From sequence record OR670491: a stretch of DNA of 64,000 nucleotides; one strand, written 5' to 3'. Made by a program: the position numbers and the translations under genes. Position 1 is the first letter of the stretch. Every line of letters begins with the position of its first letter. Positions 26,556-38,058 of this stretch are shown here, in pieces. The notes under the pieces were generated by a model. The model made no database searches. It was not told where the DNA came from and worked only from the letters and a program-made list of their open reading frames with translations. This DNA comes from Escherichia phage vB_EcoM_JNE01.

Positions 26556-26560
26556 TTAAT

Positions 26561-26986: not shown

Positions 26987-27067
26987 TACTTGCAATTAGT
27001 TTTTAGTACTGTATAATAGTTTACATGAAGGGGAGAAATGATTCTCCCCAATAACAGGAGAATCAAA

Positions 27068-27220
27068 ATGAAACAATACAACGCTCGGTTTGATGTTACT
27101 ATCGGTAACGGCAAAGGTCAATTCTCTTTCAGTACTCGCAAAAGTTATACAGAAAACTTCCTGCGTAATTGTGCACTGACCGCCGCTCAAATTAAACATT
27201 ACTTTCAGGCTAAAAAATGA
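27068..27220 (+). CDS. small hypothetical protein
   Basis: start MKQYNAR after promoter/hairpin and AGGAG RBS; track ORF begins upstream at 27038. Confidence 0.5.
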   Translation: MKQYNARFDVTIGNGKGQFSFSTRKSYTENFLRNCALTAAQIKHYFQAKK

Positions 27221-27306
27221 AAACATTAGCTTACTATAGTTCGGCCCTGGTCGGTGCATTGATCGCGGCGTTGTTAGTAACCTATCTATTCTTTATGGTG
27301 ATTTAA
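27217..27306 (+). CDS. small hydrophobic peptide (29 aa), possible membrane peptide
   Basis: hand-translated ORF MKTLAYYSSALVGALIAALLVTYLFFMVI; ATGA-coupled on both sides. Confidence 0.3.
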   Translation: MKTLAYYSSALVGALIAALLVTYLFFMVI

Positions 27307-27450
27307 ATGAATCCAACAGGTTTAAACTATAAAAGTTGTTCGGCGTTTACGAAAGCAAATAAAGCGAATGCACGTAAAGCGAAAGTACAAGAATACATCA
27401 AGCAAGGCATGACGCGAAAGGCGGCGATTCTAAAAGCTAAAAATAAATGA
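27307..27450 (+). CDS. small lysine-rich basic protein (47 aa)
   Basis: hand-translated ORF coupled to upstream peptide. Confidence 0.3.
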   Translation: MNPTGLNYKSCSAFTKANKANARKAKVQEYIKQGMTRKAAILKAKNK

Positions 27451-27560
27451 AAAAAGTGGTTGACTCCGGTCAGCCATTTTGCTATTATATATTCATTGAG
27501 AGATAGCTCACTAGCCCACAGGGTGCATAAGTGTATCTATTATATGAGTATTGAGTACTG
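27451..27560 (+). promoter_or_regulatory. repeat module: hairpin with embedded TTGACT -35, TATTAT -10, CCCACAGGGTGC box
   Basis: one of four full copies (also about 31468-31575, 34741-34850, 37487-37625). Confidence 0.5.
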
Positions 27561-27671
27561 AAAACTATTTTAAAAGTATTTGTAGAAAGTACTTGCAAAC
27601 TATCTCAATAAGCGTATAATGTTTTACATCGAAAGGGGAAACGGTTTCCCCTGATAATAAGGAAACAAATC

Positions 27672-28013
27672 ATGACTATCTCAATTGCTCAATCTAACTT
27701 TGAAAACGAAATCATCGCCCAGGCACTGCGTTTAAATGATGGTCGGGCCGAAATTAATTACGGTTTCAATTCAGGCGGTTGTGAAAAATATCAGTACTTT
27801 GTAACGGCTGATGGCGGTGTCCTGGGTATCAATACAGTTATTGTAAACATCCAAAAAATTAATTTCAATGATCCAGACGATAGCCAGTTTTACATCACTG
27901 GCGTAGACGTGAACTATGAGGATGACTCACTAACTGATGATCACACTGGTGAGAAGTTAGAGAGTGCATACGGTGAAGATGATTATCAGTCAGTACCGGA
28001 AGATTTTGAATAA
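27672..28013 (+). CDS. hypothetical acidic protein
   Basis: ORF from track after promoter + aggggaaacggtttcccct hairpin; acidic C-terminal third. Confidence 0.55.
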   Translation: MTISIAQSNFENEIIAQALRLNDGRAEINYGFNSGGCEKYQYFVTADGGVLGINTVIVNIQKINFNDPDDSQFYITGVDVNYEDDSLTDDHTGEKLESAYGEDDYQSVPEDFE

Positions 28014-28027
28014 TATTAAAAAAATAG

Positions 28028-28086
28028 TTTGACAATAGATTATAGTACTGTATAATAGTTTACATCAAGGGGAGAAAAACTTCTCC
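28028..28086 (+). promoter_or_regulatory. early promoter (TTGACA-N16-TATAAT) + 5' stem-loop (ggggagaaaaacttctcccc)
   Basis: read directly. Confidence 0.6.
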
Positions 28087-28110
28087 CCACTAACAGAGAG
28101 AGAAAACAAA

Positions 28111-28323
28111 ATGGCTAATATCTGCACTGTACTGAAAAATGCAAAACAAGTTTTATTTTCTGATCACGATCATTTAAACAAGGATATTACTGGCGTTCGG
28201 AATATCAAAGATGTAAAAAGTGTTATGGGTATCTATTGCAATATGAAACGTGTTGGAACGTTCGGCGACAAAGTACTATACCAGGCAGGGGATTACAATT
28301 TTACACTGACTATCATTAACTAA
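28111..28323 (+). CDS. hypothetical early protein
   Basis: ORF from track. Confidence 0.55.
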   Translation: MANICTVLKNAKQVLFSDHDHLNKDITGVRNIKDVKSVMGIYCNMKRVGTFGDKVLYQAGDYNFTLTIIN

Positions 28324-28415
28324 AAATATATTACCAGTACTATTAAATCTATTGACAACGTTTGATAGTACTGACATAATAACTTTTATCAACTACACTA
28401 CTAAGGAATTAAAAA

Positions 28416-28595
28416 ATGGCTATCATCGCAAAAACTGAAATCGTTGGTCTGGATTCTATCATCATGACGTTTGAAGATCAAAAAGGTATGTATGTAGTTT
28501 CATATGGTGATTATGTTCGGGAGTATGAAACGGTAGACGAAGCCTTTGAAAGTTATATTCGCCAGGTGAATAAAGCATACGACGACTACCGCTAA
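28416..28595 (+). CDS. small hypothetical protein (59 aa)
   Basis: hand-translated ORF after ttgacaacgtttgatagtactgacataat promoter and AAGGAA RBS. Confidence 0.45.
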   Translation: MAIIAKTEIVGLDSIIMTFEDQKGMYVVSYGDYVREYETVDEAFESYIRQVNKAYDDYR

Positions 28596-28685
28596 AATAT
28601 ATTACCAGTGCTATTGACAAAGTTTGATAGTACTGTATAATAAGTTTTATAAACAGTAGTTAACTTAACCTAAGAGAGAAATAAA

Positions 28686-28829
28686 ATGATCGCACTGGAT
28701 TCATTCATCGACGCAGTACTGGCAAAAACTGGCGAGGATCTGACCGCAGAACAATACGCGATGATCGAGCAATGTCAGCAAAACGGTAAATCGGTGAAAG
28801 ATACTGTTAAGATTATCCGCAAGATGTAA
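28686..28829 (+). CDS. small hypothetical protein (47 aa)
   Basis: hand-translated ORF after ttgacaaagtttgatagtactgtataat promoter. Confidence 0.45.
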   Translation: MIALDSFIDAVLAKTGEDLTAEQYAMIEQCQQNGKSVKDTVKIIRKM

Positions 28830-28836
28830 GATTATA

Positions 28837-28866
28837 GCCCACTGGTTAACGCTGGTGGGCTTTAAT
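28837..28866 (+). terminator. hairpin terminator containing a Chi octamer
   Basis: gcccac-tggttaacgctg-gtgggc then TTTAATCCTTT; GCTGGTGG lies in the loop/3' arm. Confidence 0.45.
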
Positions 28867-28928
28867 CCTTTACCCTATACAATGCCAGTACTCAACCGTT
28901 TATCTCGTTAGAATGCGTTACAGGACGT

Positions 28929-29132
28929 TTGACAATGATTAGCATGAAATCAGTACAAAAACAAATAGAAACATTATCAAAAATTAAACGTAAACAGTAC
29001 TCGTTAGAATATACAATCAATGGTAACTATCATCTAATGAAAGAGAATAATTTTATCGTCATTGATGAATCATTGCAAGTTATTAGTATAGTACTGAAAG
29101 CATTAATCAATGACAGAAAAAAATTAAAATAA
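28929..29132 (+). CDS. hypothetical protein (uncertain start)
   Basis: track ORF with TTG start and no clear RBS. Confidence 0.3.
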   Translation: MTMISMKSVQKQIETLSKIKRKQYSLEYTINGNYHLMKENNFIVIDESLQVISIVLKALINDRKKLK

Positions 29133-29136
29133 TCTA

Positions 29137-29165
29137 TTGACAATATCCTCCAGTACTGGCATAAT
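29137..29165 (+). promoter_or_regulatory. promoter (TTGACA-N17-CATAAT) heading a long leader with CCCATAGGGTGC box
   Basis: ttgacaatatcctccagtactggcataat; about 300-nt leader before gene 29462. Confidence 0.55.
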
Positions 29166-29221
29166 ACTTACATCAAGACGAGAACGTCGCTAACCCATAG
29201 GGTGCACAAATGTAACTATAT

Positions 29222-29300
29222 AATATCGATCAATAAATGATCAAAAAAGTACTGGATCAATTTAGCATAAGGCGTATAATTCTGATCAATTCTTGATCAA
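29222..29300. promoter_or_regulatory. cluster of five GATC sites (tgatcaa-type repeats) around a TATAAT element upstream of the TraR/DksA-like gene
   Basis: GATC at about 29228, 29239, 29255, 29284, 29295, as cgatcaat / tgatcaaa / ggatcaat / tgatcaat / tgatcaaa. Confidence 0.5.
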
Positions 29301-29461
29301 AGGCAATATACGCAGTTGAATTTATATAGACAGTACAAAGGCGTTACTATCCGTGGTAATGCTGGTGGATATGTAGTATCATATGGTTTGAATAAGATAA
29401 ACACTAGTAGTATTATTGTAGCATTACAGTACTATAGTATTTTTATAATGAGGTTAAAATA

Positions 29462-29719
29462 ATGGCAGTAGGATACGCGAAAGACGGGGCCGAACAAGAC
29501 GAGATTCACGCAGTGATTCAGGCCGCCGTTAACCACGCTAGAAAGCAAATTAACGCACAAAGAGAATCACTGGTACATTGCCTCGACTGCGGCGATAAAA
29601 TCCCTGAGAATCGACGCCAGGCCGTTATAGGGTGCATGTATTGTATTACTTGCCAGGAGGATCATGATAGTACTTTTAAAAGAGATCCGCGTAATTGTTG
29701 GCATAGATCTATGAGATAA
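29462..29719 (+). CDS. TraR/DksA-family C4 zinc-finger protein (putative RNA polymerase-binding regulator)
   Basis: CLDCGDKIPENRRQAVIGCMYCITCQ matches the TraR/DksA zinc-finger pattern CxxC...IPxxR...CxxCQ; 85 aa; GAGG RBS. Confidence 0.65.
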   Translation: MAVGYAKDGAEQDEIHAVIQAAVNHARKQINAQRESLVHCLDCGDKIPENRRQAVIGCMYCITCQEDHDSTFKRDPRNCWHRSMR

Positions 29720-29725
29720 AAAGTA

Positions 29726-29753
29726 TTGACAGTACTGAAAGATAGTGTATAAT
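29726..29753 (+). promoter_or_regulatory. early promoter (TTGACA-N16-TATAAT)
   Basis: ttgacagtactgaaagatagtgtataat. Confidence 0.6.
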
Positions 29754-29782
29754 GTTTTATATCTTAACTGAGGATAGTAATC

Positions 29783-30139
29783 ATGGGAATACAACATATC
29801 ACGCGTACTACTGACAATGGCGAGATCACTGGTTATCAGGTACAGGGCAAAGTAGCACAATTGCAGTACTGGTTTGTTAAACGTGGAATCATTGCACCGG
29901 ATCTTGATTATGACCGTGTAGCGTTTATTGATTCTCTTTATGTTGATCCTGATAGTCGGGGCAATGGTGAAGGTAACGAATTAATGAATGCCTTTATTGA
30001 TGCCGCCGATGATTCAGATTGTATCATCTTAGAATGCGATACGGGAGAAGATAACGCCTTTAATCTTAAAGAATGGTACGAAGGTTTCGGATTCGAGGTA
30101 CTGATCGATAGTGAATATCCTATCATGATTTTATCATAG
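29783..30139 (+). CDS. hypothetical early protein
   Basis: ORF from track with GAGGA RBS. Confidence 0.55.
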   Translation: MGIQHITRTTDNGEITGYQVQGKVAQLQYWFVKRGIIAPDLDYDRVAFIDSLYVDPDSRGNGEGNELMNAFIDAADDSDCIILECDTGEDNAFNLKEWYEGFGFEVLIDSEYPIMILS

Positions 30140-30217
30140 TACTTGCATTTAGTTTTCAGTACTGTTATAGTACTTGCATCAAGGGGAAACATCTTCCCCT
30201 ACTAAGAGGAAATAAAA

Positions 30218-30406
30218 ATGGAAAACTTATCAAGTATTTTAGTACAAGATGATTTCGGTAATCCTGGAAGTGCTATCATTGTTCGGGGCAATAAAGCAAC
30301 GTTTGTTATTGCTGGTGGACCCGTACAGCGTAGCATTAAAAATAATGCTGTTACCATTAATAATGTACGCTATCGCTTAGATAAAGAATTAATTCATAAA
30401 CTGTAA
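30218..30406 (+). CDS. small hypothetical protein
   Basis: ORF after promoter + aggggaaacatcttcccct hairpin. Confidence 0.5.
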   Translation: MENLSSILVQDDFGNPGSAIIVRGNKATFVIAGGPVQRSIKNNAVTINNVRYRLDKELIHKL

Positions 30407-30433
30407 TATTAATTTAATAGAGGATAACAATAA

Positions 30434-30757
30434 ATGTACATTCATACTACTATCACAAAGGAAGTCCGTTGCCAGTTCGAAAGTATTCCGGGCGTATGTT
30501 TCATCACTGGTACGTTTTCCCCTGGTGATCGTGATAATCCAGTACTGTTACAATTACGCCATCCATCATGGGATAAAGCATTTGATCTACCGTTGAATGA
30601 ATTCGCAACTACTGCTGAAAAGTACATTAAAAATATTCGCGAGAATGATCGACTATTCATTAATGCTTTTAGTGATGCCGCGTTAAGTGAGATCCATGCT
30701 GTATTGGTTGCAATCATGGAATCAATGGAGAAAACTATATTCAAACAAGGTGAATAA
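30434..30757 (+). CDS. hypothetical early protein
   Basis: ORF from track with GAGGA RBS. Confidence 0.55.
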   Translation: MYIHTTITKEVRCQFESIPGVCFITGTFSPGDRDNPVLLQLRHPSWDKAFDLPLNEFATTAEKYIKNIRENDRLFINAFSDAALSEIHAVLVAIMESMEKTIFKQGE

Positions 30758-30763
30758 AAACTA

Positions 30764-30822
30764 TTGACAATGCAATCCAGTACTGTATAATAGTTTACAT
30801 GAAGGAGAGAAATGATTCTCCC
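30764..30822 (+). promoter_or_regulatory. early promoter (TTGACA-N16-TATAAT) + 5' stem-loop (gagagaaatgattctc)
   Basis: read directly. Confidence 0.6.
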
Positions 30823-30840
30823 CACTAAGAGGAAAGAAAA

Positions 30841-31053
30841 ATGCAAGGTCAACTAATCGTTCGTAAATGGTCTGATACTAACGAAAAACCGTGGGATGTA
30901 CAATACATCGCCCCAAATGGTGAATCCAGATATCAACCAGGTGTAACGCATAGTACTGAGCAATTCGCCGCCGCTCATCGCGAACGTCTGTTACAATCAA
31001 TGCAGCAAGGTTCCGGTGAAAAATTCATTCAGGATCATTGGCTGAAAGATTAA
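30841..31053 (+). CDS. hypothetical early protein
   Basis: ORF from track. Confidence 0.55.
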   Translation: MQGQLIVRKWSDTNEKPWDVQYIAPNGESRYQPGVTHSTEQFAAAHRERLLQSMQQGSGEKFIQDHWLKD

Positions 31054-31139
31054 AAAGTACTTGCACAGTACTGAATAAAGTGTATAATGTTTTATATCGG
31101 AAGGGGAATAGTTCCCCTCCGAACAAAGAGGAAAGTATA

Positions 31140-31313
31140 ATGGTCCAGGTAGAATTAACAGTACTGAAAGATCTGTTTTATCGGATTGGTACTACTGGCG
31201 AATATCCGAAGGGTGATAATGCAAAACTTTACGTATCACTCGACTTATGGCAACGCGAACAATTAGCAACGGCCTGGCGTAAAGGCAAAGCAGATAGCGA
31301 GGTGAAAGCATGA
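31140..31313 (+). CDS. small hypothetical protein
   Basis: track ORF 31038..31313 begins with TTG inside promoter; ATG MVQVELT after AGAGGAAAG RBS at 31140. Confidence 0.5.
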   Translation: MVQVELTVLKDLFYRIGTTGEYPKGDNAKLYVSLDLWQREQLATAWRKGKADSEVKA

Positions 31314-31459
31314 AAGAATTCTTATTTGAAGTAGTGTTTCAAGGTGTCGGTAATAACCAACTGATTCGATCAAGTGGTTATAATGTTAACCAGGCATGGA
31401 ATAACATTAAACAAATGTACCCGAACGCTATCACATATCGCAACCCGAAAGAAGTTTAA
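31310..31459 (+). CDS. small hypothetical protein (49 aa)
   Basis: hand-translated ORF, ATGA-coupled to upstream gene. Confidence 0.35.
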   Translation: MKEFLFEVVFQGVGNNQLIRSSGYNVNQAWNNIKQMYPNAITYRNPKEV

Positions 31460-31467
31460 AAATAATT

Positions 31468-31575
31468 GAAAAAGGGATTGACTCCGGTCAGTCCCTTTGT
31501 TATTATATACGCATAGAAACAAATTAGCCCACCGGGTGCATAAATGTATCTATTGTTTGCTGGTGGCTAGTACTG
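31468..31575 (+). promoter_or_regulatory. repeat module: hairpin gggattgactccggtcagtccc with embedded -35, TATTAT -10, CCCACCGGGTGC box, Chi octamer
   Basis: copy of the 27451-27560 module; GCTGGTGG at about 31559. Confidence 0.5.
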
Positions 31576-31631
31576 AAAACTATTTTTAAAAAGTACTTGC
31601 ATTGTACTTAGAATCAAGTATAATGTTTTAC

Positions 31632-31760
31632 ATCAGGACGGGGAACGAAATAAGTAACCCCGTTAAGTAGTCCAGGAGTAAGACATACGAAAAACTCCCC
31701 TGATAAAATAGTTTGACAATAGAAAGTAAACGAGTATAATACTTACATCAACCACTGATA
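31632..31760 (+). promoter_or_regulatory. conserved about 90-nt leader between tandem promoters (copy of 21228-21345)
   Basis: caggacggggaacgaaataagtaaccccgttaagtagtccaggagtaagacatacgaaaaactcccctgataaaatagtttgacaa. Confidence 0.5.
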
Positions 31761-31773
31761 AGGAAACATAAAA

Positions 31774-32049
31774 ATGCGGATTCTACTGACAGCTAACGAA
31801 ATCGAACAAGTACTGACTACTAATCTGGAACAATGGAAACGTGAAGCAGATATCCAGGCGGTTCAATGCCTTAACGATAAGTTAACGCCAGATGACTTAA
31901 GCACGATTGTTGATCCACAATTTTATGAAGATATTCACGACACGTCTTTAAGCGTCGAGGATGTACTTGATAAGCACTACATTGATACTGATTTACATGT
32001 TTACGGTCGTAAAAACTTTATCACTATTCACGACATTTACAATACTTAA
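31774..32049 (+). CDS. hypothetical early protein
   Basis: ORF from track. Confidence 0.55.
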   Translation: MRILLTANEIEQVLTTNLEQWKREADIQAVQCLNDKLTPDDLSTIVDPQFYEDIHDTSLSVEDVLDKHYIDTDLHVYGRKNFITIHDIYNT

Positions 32050-32052
32050 GTA

Positions 32053-32110
32053 TTGACAAAGTATCTTAGTACTGTATAATAGTTTACATCAAGGGGGGGA
32101 ATGGTTCCCC
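32053..32110 (+). promoter_or_regulatory. early promoter (TTGACA-N16-TATAAT) + 5' stem-loop; module duplicated at 32322-32380
   Basis: ttgacaaagtatcttagtactgtataatagtttacatcaaggggg...ggttcccctcc; duplicate differs only in G-run length. Confidence 0.6.
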
Positions 32111-32135
32111 TCCTAACTAAAAGAGAGAAATAAAA

Positions 32136-32318
32136 ATGGCTAAGTGCACTATCTGTAATAAAGAAATAGTATTAGTTCCAAGTGCCCGTGAACGTGCCGC
32201 TCGGTTCGGTGGCAAAGCGTCAGACTATACAAAAATGTTTACTACCCATACAGCTTGCCAGGTAGCAAAACGTTCACAAGAAAGCGTAGAATTAATGCGT
32301 AAACTTTCCAAAAAATAA
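32136..32318 (+). CDS. small cysteine-containing hypothetical protein
   Basis: ORF from track; CTICNK...HTACQ pattern. Confidence 0.5.
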   Translation: MAKCTICNKEIVLVPSARERAARFGGKASDYTKMFTTHTACQVAKRSQESVELMRKLSKK

Positions 32319-32321
32319 GTA

Positions 32322-32380
32322 TTGACAAAGTATCTTAGTACTGTATAATAGTTTACATCAAGGGGGGGGGAATGGTTCCC
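32322..32380 (+). promoter_or_regulatory. early promoter + 5' stem-loop (duplicate of 32053-32110)
   Basis: read directly. Confidence 0.6.
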
Positions 32381-32406
32381 CTCCTAACAAAGAGAGAGAA
32401 ATAAAA

Positions 32407-32730
32407 ATGGCTATGATCCTTACCCAGAAAGTAGAACTGAAAATTGTAACCTCCTTTGACATTAAAGTTAATCGGTGGACTGATAGCCACGGCAATACTT
32501 ACCACTCCTGCTACGTGTCCGCATTGATTGGTGATCGCTGGGAAGACCTGGGACACGAAACCTTTACATACGGTTACGGCACACAAGGCGAGTACACGGG
32601 TTTAGAAATCATTAAGGAAACTGTAATAGGTTTCAACCCGAAAGAGAAAGTACTACACAGAATTGAGAAAGAGATCAACAAAGAAATTACAGTTCGCTAC
32701 TACGATGTAAAACGTAAGAAAGACATGTAA
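32407..32730 (+). CDS. hypothetical early protein (paralogue of 25558..25881)
   Basis: conserved block shared with 25558..25881. Confidence 0.6.
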   Translation: MAMILTQKVELKIVTSFDIKVNRWTDSHGNTYHSCYVSALIGDRWEDLGHETFTYGYGTQGEYTGLEIIKETVIGFNPKEKVLHRIEKEINKEITVRYYDVKRKKDM

Positions 32731-32829
32731 TAGAATCCATTTAAAGTACTATTTGACATTGCCCAGATAGTACTTTATAATAGACTCTAACTTGTAGTAC
32801 TAATTAACTTAACTAATAGGATGTACACC

Positions 32830-33225
32830 ATGATTACTAAATTCTTCGCTACCCGTGAACAAGCTCGCATCGTTGCCCGTGAGGAAGGTGAAACATTTAA
32901 AGACATGGGTAAAGATTCTCCTACTGGTAAACGCTGGGCGGTACAGTTCAAAGAGATCTCTGATATTGTGAATTCACCTGAGCCTGTACTTACAGCAGCA
33001 GAACTAAAGCAAGCTCAAGAACTGGCTGAAGTACTGAACGCTCAAGATGACTTCTTGAAAGGTTCTGATATTGAAGTTACAGTTAACGCAAATGCATGGA
33101 CTCACGCGGATCACCTGGCAAACCTTAAGCGTCCAAGTGAACTGATTCGTAACCAGAAAGAGATCCGTCATGACCGTAAAGGAAACCGTGTTACCGTATA
33201 CAGTAAACGCCGCCAGGTTATCTAA
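32830..33225 (+). CDS. hypothetical early protein (paralogue of 20361..20627)
   Basis: conserved FATREQAR / GKRWA / RKGNRVTVY blocks; start may instead be 32821. Confidence 0.5.
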   Translation: MITKFFATREQARIVAREEGETFKDMGKDSPTGKRWAVQFKEISDIVNSPEPVLTAAELKQAQELAEVLNAQDDFLKGSDIEVTVNANAWTHADHLANLKRPSELIRNQKEIRHDRKGNRVTVYSKRRQVI

Positions 33226-33289
33226 TACCTTGCAGTACTAACCAACACGGCGGGAAGACAGTTCCCGCCTTTTTTATAGGACAAACAAA

Positions 33290-33544
33290 ATGATTAAGGT
33301 TCAACTATATAAAGATAACATCTTACGGGTACACTATAAAGCACCTCAGAGAATCATCACAAAGGCCGTACAGCTTGCTAATGAGTTTATTAATGGTAAC
33401 CTATTACCTAGGAAGTTAAGCAACGGGAAACTGCGTGTAATCGACGTGGACACTAACAACAGGATAGTAATCGAGAACACAGGAAAGATAAACCTTTATG
33501 AGCATCAACAATACAATAAGAAAATAAAACTAATATCACGTTGA
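33290..33544 (+). CDS. hypothetical early protein
   Basis: ORF from track. Confidence 0.5.
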   Translation: MIKVQLYKDNILRVHYKAPQRIITKAVQLANEFINGNLLPRKLSNGKLRVIDVDTNNRIVIENTGKINLYEHQQYNKKIKLISR

Positions 33545-33597
33545 CAGTACTCAATTGTTTTAGTACTATGTACACATACCAACACGGGAGAAACAAA

Positions 33598-33816
33598 ATG
33601 AAATTATCTAAAATCGAAAAGAAAACTATTGATGAAGCAGTTAAGCACGGTTATACCTTTCGTAATGATTCACATTTTACCAATTTTCAACAAGGGTATC
33701 GTACTATTAAAAAACTAATTGACAAAGGTTTATTAGTTGAAGTCAATAACGGTAACGGTATCGAGTATCAACCAACACAGGACGCATTTTATTTTAAGAA
33801 ATATAATATTATCTAA
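33598..33816 (+). CDS. hypothetical early protein
   Basis: start MKLSKIEKK after promoter ttgacagtactcaattgttttagtactat; track ORF 33541..33816 begins inside the promoter. Confidence 0.5.
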   Translation: MKLSKIEKKTIDEAVKHGYTFRNDSHFTNFQQGYRTIKKLIDKGLLVEVNNGNGIEYQPTQDAFYFKKYNII

Positions 33817-33874
33817 TTGACAGTACTCAAATGTTTTAGTACTATATGTACATACCAACACGGGGGGAAACAAA

Positions 33875-34117
33875 ATGATTACTTTAGAAAAACGTATCAA
33901 AGAAACTACATCGCTGGTGGAACTGTTAACAGTACTCAAATGTAAAACAGCACCATTCAGCACGCCGGACTTTATTAATATGGTTGATGTTAATGGTCGC
34001 TATCGTATCACGGTCGAACAAGGAGCGGCGAAAGTATTCAGTACTAAAAACACGAAGGAAGTGATCCACGCCGTTAATGTTAAAAAAGTAGTTGCCATTG
34101 ATAGTAAAGTACTGTAA
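33875..34117 (+). CDS. hypothetical early protein
   Basis: preceded by a near-identical copy of the 33541-33597 promoter/leader. Confidence 0.55.
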   Translation: MITLEKRIKETTSLVELLTVLKCKTAPFSTPDFINMVDVNGRYRITVEQGAAKVFSTKNTKEVIHAVNVKKVVAIDSKVL

Positions 34118-34148
34118 TATAGTTTCATTAACTCAAGGAGATCATGCA

Positions 34149-34733
34149 ATGCGTAATTATACAAAATTCATCCGTACACTGTCAGAAATGGAAACCAACA
34201 AAGAGATCCTTTCAGCTTGTCGGTTAGCTGACCTGGAGATCATCGGTGCTGGTTCTTCCCGTATAGTTTTCGCTTTAAATGATCGGTTAGTGATTAAGGT
34301 CGCGAATTGTGATGCGGGTGTAGAACAAAATGAAACTGAATGTAAGGTATGGAATTTTTTAGACTATGACCGCCCTCAGTTGAAACAGTACTTTGCAAAG
34401 GTGCATATGCATTTATGCGATCCTGATAATATGTTTATCGTTATGGATCGGTTGAGTACTGCAAGCAAAGGCAGTGTGAAGCACGTAAACGCGTGCAATG
34501 AATTAAAGTACAATATTAAACGTAATGCAATCGAACGCCAGCACCGCTTTGCTGATGCACTACAACACGTTGATGATACATTATCAACACTAACGATAAG
34601 AGATATCAGAAAACAGAATATCGGCCAGGATCGTAATGGACTTATTAAAGTACTTGATTACGGTTTAACCAGCAATATCTGGAATCAGTACTATAAAAAG
34701 CGTGATGTGGCAGCAAGTAAGGTAACACGATAA
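34149..34733 (+). CDS. putative minimal protein kinase-like protein
   Basis: ordered kinase-like motifs: glycine loop IGAGSSRIVF, lysine in VIKVA, catalytic-loop-like IRDIRKQNIG, DFG-like VLDYG; start MRNYTKF after AAGGAG RBS. Confidence 0.5.
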   Translation: MRNYTKFIRTLSEMETNKEILSACRLADLEIIGAGSSRIVFALNDRLVIKVANCDAGVEQNETECKVWNFLDYDRPQLKQYFAKVHMHLCDPDNMFIVMDRLSTASKGSVKHVNACNELKYNIKRNAIERQHRFADALQHVDDTLSTLTIRDIRKQNIGQDRNGLIKVLDYGLTSNIWNQYYKKRDVAASKVTR

Positions 34734-34740
34734 AAAAGAT

Positions 34741-34850
34741 TAAAAAAAGGGATTGACTCCGGTCAGTCCCTTTGCTATTATATATCCATTGAGAGATAAC
34801 TCACTGACCCATAGGGTGCGGAAGTGTATCTATTATATAAGTATTCAGTA
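34741..34850 (+). promoter_or_regulatory. repeat module: hairpin with embedded -35, TATTAT -10, CCCATAGGGTGC box (copy of 27451-27560)
   Basis: gggattgactccggtcagtccctttgctattatat...gacccatagggtgcggaagtgtatc. Confidence 0.5.
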
Positions 34851-34955
34851 CTGAAAACTATTTTTAAAAAAGTACTTGCATTGTACTTAGAATCAAGTAT
34901 AATGTTTTATATCGAGAGGGGGAAATGGTTCTCCCTGGCAATAAGGAATAAAATC

Positions 34956-35177
34956 ATGACTACAATGACTTGCATTTACGCTTCCAATCGTCTGAATGAT
35001 GCGGCCTTTAATGTTGATTCAGAATATCAATGTTATCGGGATGAAAATAAAAAAGTTTTTGTAGTTGATAATAATGGTTTCCATATTGAATTACAATCCG
35101 GCTTCACTGGTGTTGATGGTAAATCAGTATGGGGCGTACAGGATGATAAAGGCACATATCATTTTAAACGTAATTAA
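34956..35177 (+). CDS. hypothetical early protein
   Basis: start MTTMTCIY after promoter + gggggaaatggttctccc hairpin; track ORF begins upstream at 34824. Confidence 0.5.
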   Translation: MTTMTCIYASNRLNDAAFNVDSEYQCYRDENKKVFVVDNNGFHIELQSGFTGVDGKSVWGVQDDKGTYHFKRN

Positions 35178-35180
35178 GTA

Positions 35181-35240
35181 TTGACAAAGTATATCAGTAC
35201 TGTATAATAGTTTACATCAAGGGGAGAATAGTTCTCCCCG
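35181..35240 (+). promoter_or_regulatory. early promoter + 5' stem-loop; module duplicated at 35672-35740
   Basis: ttgacaaagtatatcagtactgtataatagtttacatcaaggggagaatagttctcccc present twice. Confidence 0.6.
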
Positions 35241-35260
35241 ATACTAAAAGGAATAAAATC

Positions 35261-35665
35261 ATGACTACTACTAATCTTGCTCGGAATATCGCCAACGATA
35301 AAAATCATGCTGCAATGGTTGTTGGTTACATTGAAGCTATGCAATTCAGTACTGTACACAATGAGAACGGCGATTACCTGGAAGATTATGAATTATCAGA
35401 GCAAGCCCATCAAGCGGCAGTGATTGCATGTTCTCGCTTCATTGAGAAACACGGTAATGATCTGGAAGTAGTTCGCGGTATGTTTATTGATTACGGTTAT
35501 GAGCAAGCTGGTCATGATCTGTTCCTTACCCGCGAAGGTCACGGAACTGGTTTTTGGGATCGTGGTTTAGGTCACTATGGCGATGTATTCACGAAGTACT
35601 GCGAAGAAATCAACGTTTGCGATCCCTATGTAGGCGATGATAATCTAATCTATATGGGCGAATAA
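35261..35665 (+). CDS. hypothetical early protein
   Basis: ORF from track. Confidence 0.55.
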   Translation: MTTTNLARNIANDKNHAAMVVGYIEAMQFSTVHNENGDYLEDYELSEQAHQAAVIACSRFIEKHGNDLEVVRGMFIDYGYEQAGHDLFLTREGHGTGFWDRGLGHYGDVFTKYCEEINVCDPYVGDDNLIYMGE

Positions 35666-35671
35666 AAGTAT

Positions 35672-35740
35672 TTGACAAAGTATATCAGTACTGTATAATA
35701 GTTTACATCAAGGGGAGAATAGTTCTCCCCGATACTAAAA
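35672..35740 (+). promoter_or_regulatory. early promoter + 5' stem-loop (duplicate of 35181-35240)
   Basis: read directly. Confidence 0.6.
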
Positions 35741-35752
35741 GGAAACAAAATT

Positions 35753-36025
35753 ATGTCCAGCTACTCCGCTACTATGATCATTAAAGATATGAACGGTAAT
35801 CCTACTTCTGCTGGTGGATCATTTGGAAACATTAATTTAGATGGTCGGTTATCCATGCAATCAGCAATCGATGCAGCGAAAGAAGTTTTTAAGAATGAAT
35901 GTACTGTTAGTAAGCTGGATTATATGGGATTTGCTATCGAAAAAACTAATCGTTTTGTGGACTACAAAAAACCACTGATGATTGATACTAACCTGAAAGC
36001 AAACGAAGTGGAGTACTTATTATGA
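35753..36025 (+). CDS. hypothetical early protein
   Basis: ORF from track. Confidence 0.55.
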   Translation: MSSYSATMIIKDMNGNPTSAGGSFGNINLDGRLSMQSAIDAAKEVFKNECTVSKLDYMGFAIEKTNRFVDYKKPLMIDTNLKANEVEYLL

Positions 36026-36213
36026 CAGTTGAAGAAGTTAAAAAAGTACTGGCAGTACTACGCTATCATAATCATTGTAAGGTGAAGAATGATCCTGATT
36101 ATCTTGATTCATCCCTGGAAGAGGATACACTACAAGCAATAAGCCATATGCAAACATTAGCAAAGCGTATGACCGAAAAGAATAGACCGGACTATATCGG
36201 AAATAAAATTTAA
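36022..36213 (+). CDS. small hypothetical protein
   Basis: ATGA-coupled to upstream gene. Confidence 0.5.
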   Translation: MTVEEVKKVLAVLRYHNHCKVKNDPDYLDSSLEEDTLQAISHMQTLAKRMTEKNRPDYIGNKI

Positions 36214-36299
36214 AAAGTACTTGCATTGTAGTTAGATTAACGTATAATGTTTTACATAGAGCGGGGGAATAGTTCTCCCGCCAGTCCAGGAGATACACC

Positions 36300-36563
36300 A
36301 TGAACACTATCGAAATCACTATCAATGCACACGTATACGACAACGTAATCATGCAAACTACTATGACCGCTAATGATACCAGTACTTTGCGGAATACTGT
36401 TATTAGTGCTGTATGTGCCGCTATCGGTGATGTCGCCCTGGAAAATGCAAAACACGTAAACGATGGTTTCACTATGTGCAAACGTGATAACGCAAAACAT
36501 ATCATCGTGGAAGGTTACGGCGGTGTAGAATTTAATGTTTATATGAAAAAAGTACTTGCATAA
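36300..36563 (+). CDS. hypothetical early protein
   Basis: ORF after promoter + gcgggggaatagttctcccgcc hairpin. Confidence 0.55.
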   Translation: MNTIEITINAHVYDNVIMQTTMTANDTSTLRNTVISAVCAAIGDVALENAKHVNDGFTMCKRDNAKHIIVEGYGGVEFNVYMKKVLA

Positions 36564-36630
36564 TAACTAAAACAAAGTATAATGTTTTGCATAGGGGGAG
36601 ATATCCTCCCCCACTAAAAGGAGTAATAAA

Positions 36631-36855
36631 ATGGCTAACTTTGATGAACTGATGCGGGAAGTAGCTAACCTGGCAGAAGAGAAGAAATCATTCGATTCTA
36701 TCTATAACACCGCTCACCGTGATTCAGTACTGGCATGTAACCAGGATCAAAAAGATGAACTAATCGCCACCTATCATGAAGCATGGAAGTACTACCGACA
36801 ATGGGAGAAAGAAGAAAGTGAGTCTACCATTGACGGCCTCAATAATCTAATCTAA
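36631..36855 (+). CDS. hypothetical early protein
   Basis: ORF after promoter + gggggagatatcctccccc hairpin. Confidence 0.55.
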   Translation: MANFDELMREVANLAEEKKSFDSIYNTAHRDSVLACNQDQKDELIATYHEAWKYYRQWEKEESESTIDGLNNLI

Positions 36856-36931
36856 AAGTTTTATTTCAGTACTATTGACATAGCTTGATAGTACTGATGT
36901 AATAACTTTACTAACTACAAGGGGAAACATA

Positions 36932-37189
36932 ATGGATCAGTTCACACAATATCGGGTAAATCATCAAGCTATGGCCTACGTAGAAGACCATAAAACGTTA
37001 CCAGTACTGCAACCAGTTAAAGGCCATATCTATCGTGCAATGTCGTGGTGTACGGCCCAGGATGGCTATAAAACCGTAGCCGTTGGTATGTATTGCGGTA
37101 ATGGTGAATGGTTTGATCCAAATAATCCGGTAGCCATTGACAGTACTGAAAAAATGAAATGGGCCGACTACATCGAAGATATTTCATAA
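36932..37189 (+). CDS. hypothetical early protein
   Basis: ORF from track after ttgacatagcttgatagtactg promoter. Confidence 0.5.
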   Translation: MDQFTQYRVNHQAMAYVEDHKTLPVLQPVKGHIYRAMSWCTAQDGYKTVAVGMYCGNGEWFDPNNPVAIDSTEKMKWADYIEDIS

Positions 37190-37206
37190 AAACTATTTGA
37201 CAGTAC

Positions 37207-37265
37207 TAACCAGTAATGTATAATGTTTTACATAGAGCGGGGAATAGTTCTCCCGCCAATAGTTT
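37207..37265 (+). promoter_or_regulatory. early promoter (TTGACA-N16-TATAAT) + 5' stem-loop (gcggggaatagttctcccgc)
   Basis: read directly. Confidence 0.6.
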
Positions 37266-37278
37266 GGAGTAAAACATT

Positions 37279-37479
37279 ATGTCTATCGCTATCGCCCTGG
37301 TTGAAGTACTGAAAGAAGCTAAAGCCAACCAGATCGACGTAAAGATCCAGGAACTACAAAACGGCTTAATCGGCTGTACTTGTACCGCTGGTGGAGCGGC
37401 AGACTATCGAGAACACGAATCACTCGAATCACTGGTTCGGTATCTTACCATGATCGTTGATGATTGGAGAATCATCTAA
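37279..37479 (+). CDS. small hypothetical protein
   Basis: ORF from track. Confidence 0.5.
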   Translation: MSIAIALVEVLKEAKANQIDVKIQELQNGLIGCTCTAGGAADYREHESLESLVRYLTMIVDDWRII

Positions 37480-37486
37480 CAAAAAA

Positions 37487-37625
37487 AGAATAAAAAAAGG
37501 GATTGACTCCGGTCAGTCCCTTTGCTATTATATACGCATAGACAAAAACTAGCCCACAGGGTGCATAGGTGTATCCAAAATATATAGTTAATAACGGTGA
37601 GTAACTATCTGCTGGTGGAACTAAA
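37487..37625 (+). promoter_or_regulatory. repeat module: hairpin with embedded -35, TATTAT -10, CCCACAGGGTGC box, Chi octamer
   Basis: copy of 27451-27560 module; GCTGGTGG at about 37611. Confidence 0.5.
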
Positions 37626-37643
37626 ACTATTAATAAAAAAGTA

Positions 37644-37672
37644 TTGACAAAGTATATCAGTACTGCAATAAT
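37644..37672 (+). promoter_or_regulatory. early promoter (TTGACA, variant -10)
   Basis: ttgacaaagtatatcagtactgcaataat. Confidence 0.5.
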
Positions 37673-37725
37673 GTATCTCGTAGGGCGGCAATGGTGCGAC
37701 GGCCCACAAAGTTAGGAGATTCAAA

Positions 37726-38058
37726 ATGACTACTTCAATCGCTATCGTTAAAGCTTTCATCCGTACTAATGTTTCCTCTGTATTCATCGACGGCCTCGAC
37801 CGTAACGTAGAATACTCAATCATTATCGCACAAACGGCAAACGGTTCTCGGTACATCCTGAATGATAGTGAAGCAAATCACTACTACTTCACTAAAGCCA
37901 CTGGCTTTAAACGCATCGATGCTGATGTAGTATACGCTAAGATGAATAAGCTGGTAGACAAGATTAACGCTAAAGGTACTATAGATTTACAGTACTGGAC
38001 CGAAACCGATCCAGAATATGGATCTCACCGCTACCTGAATCCAGGTATCAAAATGTAA
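37726..38058 (+). CDS. hypothetical early protein
   Basis: ORF from track. Confidence 0.55.
   Translation: MTTSIAIVKAFIRTNVSSVFIDGLDRNVEYSIIIAQTANGSRYILNDSEANHYYFTKATGFKRIDADVVYAKMNKLVDKINAKGTIDLQYWTETDPEYGSHRYLNPGIKM

Follow-up and report, generated by a model that had tools for sequence, protein, structure and literature searches.

The early region of a jumbo coliphage carries four copies of a composite element in which a hairpin with an embedded -35 hexamer is followed by a -10 hexamer and a conserved box, and this raises the question of which strand the hairpin and the promoter serve, and whether the box acts as DNA or as RNA. The stretch analysed here (the window, 64,000 nucleotides of sequence record OR670491) belongs to an Asteriusvirus (RaK2-like) jumbo coliphage, and the Asteriusvirus phages fEgEco12 and Ecwhy_1 share 97% identity with the module region. 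For fEgEco12, both PhageTerm and restriction digests confirmed a terminal repeat of 20,993 bp (PMC13070987), which maps to approximately positions 17757-38963 of the window; the four modules lie inside this direct terminal repeat of about 21 kb, amid early genes. All annotated genes of the repeat are on the + strand. RaK2-like phages cluster with T4-like phages in the portal protein phylogeny and encode a gp55-like late sigma factor (PMC5259590); no mapping of transcription start sites or 3' ends was found in the literature for this group. We regard the modules as quite probably composite cassettes of the PeSL (promoter-early stem-loop) type known from T4-type phages, situated in the early terminal repeat of a RaK2-like jumbo phage that the host RNA polymerase would transcribe.

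Layout of the four modules

The four copies were found where the preliminary description had placed them: TTGACTCCGGTCAG has four exact occurrences, at 27460, 31478, 34753 and 37503, all on the + strand, where 0.15 are expected from shuffles. A repeat finder grouped 31458-31550, 34733-34825 and 37483-37575 in one family (D8) and matched 27438-27575 to 34731-34868 at 86% identity in another (D9), and the modules divide into two subtypes, one comprising copies 1 and 3, the other copies 2 and 4. The ORFs that flank the four modules are mutually unrelated. The hairpin, previously described as 8 bp long, comprises 12 bp and a 4-nt UCCG loop, and includes one G·U pair or, in copy 1, two. The -35 hexamer TTGACT does lie inside the 5' arm of the stem in all four copies, and is followed in 4/4 by a 17-bp spacer and TATTAT with a TGn motif. 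In the following list P1 is the promoter that overlaps the hairpin and P2 is that of the downstream ORF.

27453-27480, + strand: copy 1 hairpin, 12 bp with two G·U pairs and a UCCG loop, probable sense-strand intrinsic terminator, starting 2 nt past the stop codon of the ORF 27307-27450
27460-27465, + strand: copy 1 -35 TTGACT, within the 5' arm of the hairpin
27483-27488, + strand: copy 1 P1 -10 TATTAT, with TG at 27480-27481 and predicted start A27495
27495-27540, + strand: copy 1 box RNA, long form
27497-27500 with 27507-27510, + strand: copy 1 SL1 (UGAG/CUCA)
27514-27524, + strand: copy 1 SL2 GCCC-ACA-GGGU, then GC and 5 variable nt
27532-27540, + strand: copy 1 UGUAUCUAU, 3' end of the box RNA
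27593-27620, + strand: copy 1 P2 TTGCAA-16-TATAAT, then a 5'-UTR hairpin, SD and ATG 27672
31471-31498, + strand: copy 2 hairpin, predicted terminator, 11 nt past the stop of the ORF 31310-31459; -35 TTGACT at 31478-31483
31501-31553, + strand: copy 2 P1 -10 (31501-31506) and box RNA, short form without SL1, CCC at 31528; predicted start about 31513
31559-31566, + strand: copy 2 Chi, after the box
31597-31624, + strand: copy 2 P2 TTGCAT-16-TATAAT
31713-31740, + strand: copy 2 third promoter, preceding ATG 31774
34746-34773, + strand: copy 3 hairpin, predicted terminator, 12 nt past the stop of a kinase-like ORF ending at 34733; -35 TTGACT at 34753-34758
34776-34833, + strand: copy 3 P1 -10 (34776-34781) and box RNA, long form with SL1 UGAG/CUCA and SL2 (CCC at 34808); predicted start about 34788
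34876-34903, + strand: copy 3 P2 TTGCAT-16-TATAAT, then a 5'-UTR hairpin, SD and ATG 34956
37496-37523, + strand: copy 4 hairpin, predicted terminator, 16 nt past the stop of the ORF 37279-37479; -35 TTGACT at 37503-37508
37526-37578, + strand: copy 4 P1 -10 (37526-37531) and box RNA, short form, CCC at 37553; predicted start about 37538
37611-37618, + strand: copy 4 Chi, after the box
37644-37672, + strand: copy 4 P2 TTGACA-17-AATAAT, preceding ATG 37726

The Chi octamer (GCTGGTGG) is found downstream of copies 2 and 4, as had been noted, at differing distances from the box CCC (31 nt for the site at 31559 and 58 nt for that at 37611). The window contains 13 Chi sites against 0.54 expected, all of them in the terminal repeat and mostly in one orientation. 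Because the distances differ and the excess spans the terminal repeat, Chi was rejected as a component of the module; the octamers are independent insertions within the repeat-wide excess.

Structure and strand of the hairpin

The hairpin was compared across 24 distinct homologues from six phages. In this set 93.9% of the cells pair, and in 6/11 pairs both sides have changed, with 24 compensatory cells seen in the outer stem; these values were reached by 0/500 shuffles, and slid registers pair at 29-62%. Copy 1 itself shows two compensatory changes relative to copies 2-4. UNCG-type loops are present in 16 of the 24 homologues, and the arm opposite TTGAC varies almost solely through G·U pairs. 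These data bear on the idea that the palindrome acts as DNA, either by binding a dimeric repressor at an operator that overlaps the -35 or by extruding as a cruciform that gates the promoter, the latter having been suggested in the preliminary description. The palindrome is imperfect, spans 28 bp and is centred between the -35 and the spacer, a position that would suit an operator. Operators keep their sequence, however, whereas here the outer half-sites (GGGA/TCCC, GTAC/GTAC, GGGG/CCCC, GGC/GCC and GAC/GTC among the homologues) change freely if pairing holds. The arms stay complementary by way of G·U wobble, a pairing that counts as a mismatch in DNA and on the opposite strand; for this reason gating by extrusion was rejected, and a 12-bp arm with mismatches is in any case a poor candidate for a cruciform. 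We consider a role of the palindrome as DNA extremely improbable.

The predicted folding energies differ between the strands, with a mean over 29 hairpin-bearing units of -16.0 kcal/mol for the sense and -9.8 kcal/mol for the antisense RNA. For copy 1, a 56-nt window gave a centroid of -15.8 and an MFE of -17.2 kcal/mol on the + strand against -6.7 and -7.8 kcal/mol on the minus strand, and the hairpin core alone gave -16.9 against -6.4 kcal/mol; the corresponding values for the copy 2 hairpin are -19.5 and -13.2 kcal/mol. As minus-strand RNA the stem loses strength, since each conserved G·U pair turns into a C·A mismatch there and the loops no longer belong to the UNCG class. The hairpins follow + strand stop codons at 2-16 nt, and independent annotations of phages G17, GAP32 and Munch list the same hairpins as + strand ARNold terminators or stem-loops. 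The hairpin thus probably functions as an intrinsic terminator of the sense strand, and a sigma-70 promoter overlaps it. The combination of terminator-type hairpin and promoter that had been proposed is supported by sequence and comparison; its division between opposite strands is not, since the genes are all on the + strand, the hairpins follow + strand stops and the stem is stronger as + strand RNA. From these features and the outside annotations, the + strand is most likely the one on which the element both terminates and initiates transcription.

The tracts beside the stem lend something to the alternative that the hairpin owes its selection to termination on the minus strand (stem followed by T5-7), where it would block antisense transcription, with a promoter alone on the + strand, or that it is truly bidirectional. 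The A run before the stem becomes a clean U5-7 tract in minus-strand RNA, and the minus-strand T6 run reported earlier does exist, although its length is 5-7 and not uniformly 6; the sense U tract of the window copies is interrupted (UUUGCUAUUAU, with 3 leading U only). Among the 24 homologues the upstream tract has 5.9 A of 8 and the downstream tract 5.5 T of 8, leading U runs are often longer in the antisense than in the sense RNA, and three hairpins (GAP32 6606, GAP32 23596 and BF 2482) have no U tract. The terminal repeat also contains minus-strand promoters, at 18.9, 21.1 and 23.1 kb, but in the interval from 27 to 39 kb none of the four copies has a strong minus-strand promoter or a minus-strand gene directed at it. 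With the weaker minus-strand stem, the location directly past + strand stop codons, and an UP element explaining the A tract equally well, we regard selection for minus-strand or truly bidirectional termination as unlikely. Since the sense U tract is interrupted and both tracts are equally rich, sense termination could nevertheless be partial, or the role bidirectional, and an upstream A tract as rich as the downstream T tract makes a weaker minus-strand terminator activity conceivable.

Promoters, the box and its RNA

P1 of copy 1 matches the consensus at 10/12 positions, with a 17-bp spacer and TG present. It could be argued that the element is a terminator only, with TTGACT and TATTAT as chance by-products of its AT-rich sequence and the box transcribed by read-through, and promoter-like hexamer pairs are indeed common in AT-rich DNA (98 in the window against 69 expected from shuffles). 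However, TTGAC is near-invariant in the 24 hairpins (TTG in 24/24, A and C in at least 90%) while the remaining stem covaries, and T-12, A-11 and T-7 of the -10 are invariant over the 24 homologues, with the spacing fixed at 17-18 bp. A sigma-70-like promoter precedes 55/55 box units in six phages, and in 26 of these it is an ordinary promoter without a hairpin; the box sits at an equal distance behind both kinds, so the hairpin-embedded hexamers hold the place of a real promoter. SL1 also starts 2-4 nt past the predicted transcription start in all long-form units. A terminator without promoter is, on these grounds, highly unlikely. A separate promoter, P2, serves the downstream ORF and lies about 110-135 bp beyond P1. 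The ordinary promoters of the region likewise have A tracts.

The conserved box (CCCAYMGGGTGC) is present in the units as described but is not limited to these four. It occurs nine times in the window against 0.19 expected, at 21030, 27515, 29194, 31528, 34808 and 37553 on the + strand and at 18858, 21087 and 23008 on the minus strand. About 55 copies were found in the seven phages analysed, and the box is present in every related jumbo phage examined; Rfam returned no match for the box RNA. The other units in the window are as follows.

18834-18935, minus strand: box unit near the left end of the terminal repeat
20976-21148, both strands: convergent box pair, + strand promoter 20976-21004 and minus-strand promoter 21148-21120, the boxes abutting as an inverted repeat of about 45 nt (-42.7 kcal/mol, z -6.3)
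22947-23076, minus strand: stand-alone box unit, promoter 23076-23048, SL1 and box 23031-22984, closing at a bidirectional terminator 22967-22947; predicted RNA about 105 nt
29137-29229, + strand: fifth sense-strand box unit, ordinary promoter TTGACA-17-CATAAT with no hairpin, then SL1 and box; missing from phage G17

A full 4-bp SL1 in fixed register is found in 60% of the 55 units, compared with 10.8% when the arms are permuted (0/2000), and it is built from 15 distinct arm pairs. Its covariation, with 35 double-change cells, scores 0.463 against 0.178, a value that 0/500 shuffles reach. SL1 is missing in two of the four modules (31516 and 37541). SL2 is invariant except for its closing pair, A-U or G·U, and its pairing is thus without covariation support; single-sequence folds of the leaders were not more stable than those of shuffles (z +0.4 to -1.4). 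Because the covarying 5' hairpin SL1 precedes the box, we conclude from the comparison that the box is a transcribed RNA.

It is improbable that the box instead acts as DNA, whether by binding a roadblock or regulator protein close to the promoter, by inducing a sigma-dependent pause or by signalling recombination or replication in the terminal repeat. Its core (CCCAYAGGGTGC...TGTATCTAT) is kept as sequence, with no compensatory change, and several genera have kept convergent inverted box pairs close to the terminal-repeat ends. Covariation of the adjoining SL1, however, is explicable only by selection on RNA, and the distance of the box from the -10 hexamer, 21-29 nt with one outlier of 41, is too spread to suit a phased DNA site well. 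Every copy is moreover oriented downstream of its promoter, and the minus-strand copies end in terminators located some 45 nt past the box. We lean towards reading the box RNA as a small RNA or as an RNA handle that a phage or host factor would bind, since the minus-strand copies are self-contained, with promoter, box and terminator.

In six Asteriusvirus genomes the variable columns amount to 3/112 in the hairpin, 1/24 in the -10 hexamer, 4/66 in the leader and 16/108 in the box, and to 315/1084 in the flanking CDS. The modules are under strong purifying selection and occupy identical positions in five of five relatives, which makes it decidedly improbable that they persist mainly as portable recombination joints (PeSL-style shuffling, mini-circles) with regulation secondary. 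The region is hyperplastic, with single-gene indels relative to G17, 121Q, slurp01 and SD-1_S14 that are bounded by repeated promoter cassettes with overlaps of 66-102 bp, and a small number of megablast breakpoints coincide with module 1 (27438, 27588) or with the end of box 4 (37575-37588). Nearly all of the mapped indels, though, are bounded by another family, an ordinary promoter with a 5'-UTR hairpin.

In the mechanism that we propose, upstream + strand transcripts would fold the 12-bp hairpin AAAGGGAUUGAC-UCCG-GUCAGUCCCUUU, followed by the interrupted U tract, and terminate there, at a point within the spacer/-10 region of the next promoter. In the DNA the inner 5' arm would provide the -35 TTGACT of P1, which its sequence and conservation suggest to be a strong sigma-70 promoter that also uses an UP-like upstream A tract, the 17-bp spacer and an extended -10 TGcTATTAT. 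The new + strand transcript would begin about 7 nt past the -10, and since it lacks the hairpin it could not be terminated by it. Its first 45-60 nt or so would form a conserved structured RNA, in the order SL1 (long form only), RCCC-AYA-GGGU (SL2) and GC-N5-UGUAUCUAU. As the downstream ORF has P2, P1 would serve mainly to produce this box RNA, which may be a small non-coding RNA of the early phase or may act in cis as a leader that modifies polymerase or transcript.

Comparison with known systems

The PeSLs of RB49/phi1, T4/PST and KVP40/nt-1 (Arbiol et al. 2010, Comeau et al. 2014) are, like the modules, small intergenic cassettes of early hyperplastic regions, in which an AT-rich tract and a sigma-70 promoter close to consensus are joined to a stable stem-loop that ends upstream transcription (predicted here); both occur in many copies beside unrelated small ORFs. 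Among T4-type PeSLs there are subclasses whose stem-loop overlaps the -35 or sits between the -35 and -10, with G-T pairs, and both terminator and promoter activities were demonstrated by lacZ fusions (PMC2839356). The nt-1/KVP40 stem-loop consensus, A3-4G3-loop-C3T3-4 (PMC4122927), nearly equals the AAAGGG...CCCTTT of the modules. PeSLs run straight into SD and ATG, whereas in the modules a conserved non-coding RNA comes first, followed by a second promoter; their hosts are RaK2-like jumbo phages and not Tevenvirinae, and the indels mapped here use another repeat family (promoter, then 5'-UTR hairpin). The activities of PeSLs have been measured, while those of the modules are predicted.

Bidirectional intrinsic (Rho-independent) terminators share the A tract, the GC-containing hairpin and the T tract just past a stop codon. 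The module stem differs in being asymmetric (G·U pairs, UNCG loop), with one strand favoured, and in having an embedded promoter and a U tract that is interrupted because it doubles as promoter spacer and -10.

The lambda nut boxA/boxB and HK022 put sites are short structured RNAs with small hairpins just after early phage promoters. The box RNA resembles them in being promoter-proximal and repeated, and its GCCC...GGG(C/U) recalls the boxB stem, but the SL2 loop is of 3 nt and not a GNRA-like pentaloop, and no boxA is present. The likeness is one of general layout, and stand-alone minus-strand copies ending at terminators misfit pure antitermination.

A preprint on T7 (Bao & Forster 2026) offers a further likeness, one short segment with both termination and sigma-70 extended -10 (TGn) activity, although the T7 dual elements belong to class II (non-hairpin) and terminate T7 RNA polymerase. 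Coupling between the termination and initiation sites of adjacent units is reported in the preprint 'Widespread coupling of promoters and terminators of transcription in bacteria'.

Arrangement of the modules within the terminal repeat

The hairpins of the four composite modules and the repeat that contains them are located in the window as follows.

17757–38963 (approximate), direct terminal repeat
27453–27480, plus strand, hairpin of module copy 1
31471–31498, plus strand, hairpin of module copy 2
34746–34773, plus strand, hairpin of module copy 3
37496–37523, plus strand, hairpin of module copy 4

The existence of four copies, as given in the preliminary description, was confirmed: there are exactly four occurrences of the 14-mer TTGACTCCGGTCAG, always on the plus strand (27460, 31478, 34753 and 37503), against 0.15 expected. 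The repeat finder delimited units of approximately 93–138 nt in two subtypes, with copies 1 and 3 sharing 86% identity over 138 nt and copies 2 and 4 sharing 89% over 93 nt. The stop codon of a plus-strand ORF lies 2–16 nt ahead of every unit. Since the four units are flanked by mutually unrelated ORFs, gene duplication is ruled out as the origin of the repeat, and the unit is a repeated regulatory cassette. All four copies feature TTGACT and TATTAT with 17-bp spacing, a TG before TATTAT and an A5–7 tract upstream; this module promoter is referred to as P1.

The stretch 27000–38200 is matched end to end at 95–97% identity by five Asteriusvirus jumbo coliphages (fEgEco12, Ecwhy_1, ph0011, WPEC3 and CMSTMSU) in megablast searches, which also returned partial matches in more than 100 related records. 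In fEgEco12 and G17, all annotated genes of the module stretch are small ORFs on the strand equivalent to the window plus strand. PhageTerm and restriction digests confirmed a direct terminal repeat of 20,993 bp in fEgEco12, whose record begins at the physical left end (PMC13070987). Local BLAST places fEgEco12 position 130 at window 17886 and positions 20429–21089 at window 38415–39059, and the terminal repeat therefore corresponds to approximately 17757–38963, with all four modules inside. At its left end, 17757–19520 comprises approximately 1.7 kb without a convincing ORF and contains tandem repeats, namely ACGGCTAA in 4.4 copies at 18620–18654, inside a 48-nt array of 2.1 copies at 18576–18676, and a 66-nt unit in 2.5 copies at 19301–19465; the stretch is a candidate for a role in packaging, as a terminus or as an origin. 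The whole window has neither tRNA nor tmRNA genes.

When six Asteriusvirus genomes are compared, variable columns number 3 of 112 in the hairpin, 1 of 24 in the −10 hexamer, 4 of 66 in the leader, 16 of 108 in the box and 37 of 174 in the spacer, compared with 315 of 1084 in the flanking coding sequence. Near-consensus sigma-70 promoters are dense in the module region, and the repeat finder sorted them into families with as many as 16 copies; most have a 5′-UTR hairpin, SD and ATG behind them. Six such families between 25239 and 38130 (D1–D6) each consist of a near-consensus sigma-70 promoter, ACAUCAA, a GGGGAGAAAUGAUUCUCCCC-type 5′-UTR hairpin, SD and ATG. Local BLAST of the window against five relatives showed the region to be hyperplastic, with single-gene indels (26810–26979, 29736–30157, 30406–30756, 32142–32310, 33601–33795 and 35272–35666) bounded by repeated promoter cassettes. 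Because the borders fall mostly in this other repeat family of ordinary promoter plus 5′-UTR hairpin, the idea that the composite modules are preferred indel joints is unsupported; the modules stay put. The D1–D6 repeats border indels relative to G17, 121Q, slurp01 and SD-1_S14, with overlaps of 66–102 bp. By analogy with the promoter-early stem-loop (PeSL) cassettes of T4-type phages, the indels at ordinary promoter/5′-UTR repeats would be a PeSL-like modular shuffling.

In the window, 13 Chi octamers (GCTGGTGG) are found (18247–37618) against 0.54 expected, and all 13 sites lie in the terminal repeat, with none in the other approximately 43 kb. Eleven are on the plus strand and two on the minus strand (18346 and 24583). 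Given the polarity of RecBCD, plus-strand Chi is active for entry from the right end and minus-strand Chi from the left; the nearest plus-strand site (37611) is approximately 1.35 kb from the right end and the nearest minus-strand site (18346) approximately 0.6 kb in from the left. A sense-strand excess of 6–11 sites per 20–40 kb is also present in K64-1, CBB, GAP32, BF, Munch, 121Q, slurp01 and SD-1_S14. In the two modules that carry Chi, the octamer lies 31 and 58 nt past the CCC that anchors the box. This varying distance, together with an excess that extends over the terminal repeat, makes Chi a property of the terminal repeat, and its initial description as a component of the module was not borne out. 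The excess is not mentioned in the phage papers examined, that on fEgEco12 (PMC13070987) among them. For phages such as these, whose injected DNA is linear and carries long repeats, a Chi-loaded terminal repeat suggests a way of coping with RecBCD or of exploiting it.

The hairpin as sense-strand RNA and the −35 as DNA

The hairpin, initially described as 8 bp long, has a 12-bp stem closed by a UCCG loop and covers both the −35 and the spacer, with fold energies of −16.9 to −19.5 kcal/mol. As RNA, the plus strand folds at −19.5 kcal/mol and the minus strand at −13.2 (−16.9 versus −6.4 in copy 1), a difference that arises because G·U pairs turn into C·A mismatches on the opposite strand. With one unit as query, BLAST detected the module at 70–80% identity in other RaK2-like genera, including Klebsiella phages K64-1 and RaK2, Cronobacter phage GAP32, Pectobacterium phage CBB, Serratia phage BF, Salmonella phage Munch, and Erwinia and Yersinia phages, and in several of the matched records the module site is annotated within terminal repeats. 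The terminal regions of five distant phages (K64-1, CBB, GAP32, BF and Munch) were fetched, and 24 distinct hairpins were aligned. Standard pairs occupy 93.9% of the alignment cells, and changes on both sides are found at 6 of 11 pairs (GC, AU, UA and CG types), with 24 compensatory cells in total. None of 500 shuffles matched these pairing values, and registers slid along the alignment pair in only 29–62%. The varying pairs are the four outermost. In the inner 5′ arm, TTGAC hardly changes (TTG in 24 of 24, AC in at least 90%), and the arm that pairs with it varies almost only through G·U (GUCAG, GUCGG, GUUAG). Positions T−12, A−11 and T−7 of the −10 are invariant in the 24 homologues, at 17–18 bp from TTGAC. 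The loop is UUCG, UCCG or UACG in 16 of the 24 hairpins; UNCG tetraloops stabilise RNA and not DNA, and are formed here on the sense strand only. The compensatory changes argue for a stem that is probably selected as sense-strand RNA and a −35 that is probably selected as DNA sequence. The proposal that promoter use is gated by hairpin extrusion is rejected.

On the sense strand, a plus-strand consensus scan found the arrangement of an intrinsic terminator, in which a GC-containing hairpin is followed by a U-rich tract after a gene. Independent annotators have marked the same hairpins as plus-strand ARNold terminators or stem-loops in the G17, GAP32 and Munch records, the ARNold call in G17 having an energy of −13.0 kcal/mol. 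The sense U tract, UUUGCUAUUAU, is moderate and interrupted in the window copies and is better in other genera (U4–U7). Over the 24 homologues, the upstream A tract averages 5.9 of 8 against 5.5 of 8 for the downstream T tract, and the U run is often cleaner on the antisense strand; with an A tract as rich as the T tract, the architecture is formally that of a bidirectional terminator. The preliminary description had proposed a dual terminator and promoter with the −35 in the stem, and had placed termination on the minus strand. The sequence and comparative evidence supports the first proposal, both activities being predicted ones, and argues against the second, as both functions most likely belong to the plus strand.

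The box units and their predicted RNA

P1 would launch a short RNA, the box RNA, in which a small hairpin (SL1, long form only) is followed by a second one (SL2, RCCC-AYA-GGGU). Nine occurrences of the box core CCCAYMGGGTGC were counted in the window, where 0.19 would be expected, and an nhmmer profile of the 48-nt box retrieved 55 units from the window and the five distant phages. A sigma-70-like promoter precedes all 55, with CCC located 21–29 nt past the −10 (one outlier at 41). The composite hairpin is present in 29 units, all of them gene-sense, and the other 26, including all minus-strand-of-locus copies, have ordinary promoters. Since the box lies at the same distance behind ordinary promoters, the hexamers embedded in the hairpin sit exactly where a bona fide promoter does. 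The hairpin would be present only in units that have an upstream sense operon to terminate.

In every genus, sense units have a second promoter (P2) behind the box, its A/T-rich upstream region following within approximately 40–70 nt. P2 has its own short leader, SD and ORF, so that P1 is not needed for gene expression. Minus-strand units meet a bidirectional terminator approximately 45 nt past the box and are thus predicted to yield self-contained RNAs of approximately 95–105 nt. Convergent pairs, in which two boxes abut as an inverted repeat of approximately 45 nt, are kept in the window, CBB, GAP32, BF and Munch, and in several genera lie near the ends of the terminal repeat. P2, the minus-strand units and the convergent pairs are together more suggestive of an RNA product or RNA handle than of a 5′ UTR of the usual kind.

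Minus-strand units, convergent pairs and an upstream motif of box promoters (coordinates outside the window are those of the fetched terminal regions)
Window 23031 (−), unit ending at a bidirectional terminator
K64-1 14358 (−) and 21739 (−), units ending at a bidirectional terminator
Munch 3345 (−) and 12038 (−), units ending at a bidirectional terminator
Window 20976–21148, convergent pair; RNA hairpin of −42.7 kcal/mol, z −6.3 (+), and −28.8 kcal/mol (−)
CBB 996/1088, 3815/3898 and 20828/20920, convergent pairs
GAP32 3777/3869, 6606/6698 and 22887/22979, convergent pairs
BF 2482/2562, convergent pair
Window 20949–20967, motif (T)TTACAAATCTTTACAA(A)
K64-1, upstream of 11313, 14358, 18232, 19643 and 28347, same motif
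GAP32 6606 and 23596, same motif
BF 2482, same motif

Several further sequence features accompany these promoters and boxes. The motif (T)TTACAAATCTTTACAA(A) is found 10–25 nt upstream of the −35 in a subset of box promoters from several genera. The palindromic hexamer AGTACT occurs 307 times in the whole window, inside and outside the terminal repeat, against approximately 21 expected from base composition. It occupies two fixed promoter positions, over the −35 (AGTACTTGCA) and directly ahead of the −10 (CAGTACTGTATAAT), and also follows most box RNAs (for example at 27554, 27588, 34847 and 34871), a distribution that suggests a putative site recognised by a DNA-binding factor of the phage or the host. 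Three plus-strand terminator hairpins (23822–23845, 24537–24558 and 28830–28862) have a common stem, AGCCCAC...GTGGGCT, whose heptamer is identical to the opening of the box, and the one at 28830 contains a Chi octamer in its 3′ arm (28851–28858).

SL1 precedes the box and follows the predicted start, which is the A of a recurrent CAU. It is present in copies 1 and 3, copies 2 and 4 being of the short form. Its stem differs from unit to unit (GGC/GCC, AGCA/UGCU, GGAG/CUCC, GACG/CGUC, UGAG/CUCA, ACCG/CGGU and others). All 55 units, without selection, were aligned gap-free with CCC as the anchor; in this alignment, four perfect pairs form at a fixed register in 60% of units, with 15 distinct arm pairs. 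Permuting the 3′ arms among units gave 10.8% (maximum 23.6%), none of 2000 permutations reaching the observed value, and registers slid by one to three positions gave 2–12%. The 22 units with a six-nucleotide loop contain 35 double-change cells and have a covariation score of 0.463 versus 0.178, with none of 500 shuffles reaching the observed score. SL2 is invariant except for A-U versus G·U at its base, so that covariation neither backs nor contradicts its pairing. From a plain MAFFT alignment, RNAalifold returned SL2 alone; SL1 emerged with the gap-free, CCC-anchored one.

Three other readings of the box were rejected. A short ORF from a GTG in the box (VHKCIYY...) has no SD, and its homologues run from 5 to 17 codons with differing ends. 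A long-range helix of the 5′ end or SL1 loop (AGAUA) with a 3′ UAUCU appears in the minimum free energy folds of copies 1 and 3, and its partner is missing or non-nested in most homologues. A mimic of type I-E or I-F CRISPR repeats, acting as an RNA anti-CRISPR, was discarded as the box has no similarity to these repeats. Elsewhere in the terminal repeat, 18705–18726 (GTTCCCC-TACCGCGT-GGGGATA) resembles the type I-E CRISPR repeat of E. coli (GAGTTCCCCGCGCCAGCGGGGATAAACCG) in its stem and flanks; this is a weak lead, and a permissive Rfam scan of 18.5–38.5 kb, which covers the site, reported no CRISPR-DR family.

Rfam gave no match in the whole window at gathering thresholds, and the permissive scan (E up to 5, 18.5–38.5 kb) gave chance-level matches only, at places other than the box RNA. 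Occurrences of the box pattern in IMG/VR are confined to RaK2-like contigs of 345–378 kb and two fragments. No host homologue or target was matched in 5,426 E. coli genomes, a search in which the E-value limit hides short matches. The genome papers on CBB, fEgEco12 and Sharanji make no mention of the box RNA, and literature searches on RaK2-like phages and Asteriusvirus yielded MEME and ARNold predictions only, with no transcriptomes or promoter studies.

We incline to a small immediate-early RNA made in abundance, or to a protein-binding handle. We hold it slightly more likely than not that the box is the core of an undescribed family of immediate-early phage RNAs, apparently specific to RaK2-like phages. 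Each terminal repeat would hold approximately 9–12 dedicated strong promoters, and in half of these the promoter would be joined to the terminator that ends the operon before it. Such an RNA would serve in cis as a nut/put-like handle that alters the response of RNA polymerase to terminators further downstream, or else in trans, as an abundant RNA that decoys or guides a factor of host or phage during takeover. The convergent promoter pairs would also yield perfect RNA hairpins or duplexes of approximately 45 bp. The DNA that is expected to enter the cell first contains approximately ten copies of the box RNA, which is kept across the six RaK2-like genera or lineages examined. To our knowledge, almost nothing is known of host takeover by these jumbo phages, and a multi-copy early RNA offers a concrete and cheap experimental handle on it.

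Comparison with antitermination RNAs and PeSL cassettes

The lambda nut site consists of boxA and a boxB hairpin with a GNRA-like pentaloop, and the HK022 put site of a two-stem fold, both with terminator read-through. Their likeness to the box RNA is positional only, in that all are promoter-proximal and the box RNA has a small GCCC/GGGU stem; a nut/put-like role in cis would thus be a positional analogy.

The closer comparison is with PeSLs, whose subclasses place a stem-loop between the −35 and −10 or over either box, with stems that include G-T pairs, and which in lacZ fusions showed terminator strength similar to rrnB T1 and promoter activity of up to approximately 13,000 Miller units (PMC2839356). 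The stem-loop consensus in KVP40 and nt-1 is A3–4G3-loop-C3T3–4 (PMC4122927), and RaK2-like phages are distant relatives of T4 (PMC5259590). The modules share with PeSLs a sigma-70-like early promoter, with an AT-rich upstream region and −35 and −10 approximately 17 bp apart, and a stable stem-loop in or beside the promoter, here the covarying stem over −35 and spacer. With this precedent, the composite terminator/promoter design is of a known kind. However, PeSLs end at an SD and ATG, whereas in the modules these lie approximately 180–270 nt downstream and are separated from P1 by the box RNA and P2, plus a third promoter in copy 2. The two also differ in phage lineage and in shuffling role, the four composite modules keeping their position in the five relatives. 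A covarying terminator within a promoter, found across six genera or lineages of jumbo phages of 350 kb, would extend the PeSL principle, and the new part is the multi-copy early RNA that P1 is predicted to launch, with its covarying 5′ hairpin and invariant core.
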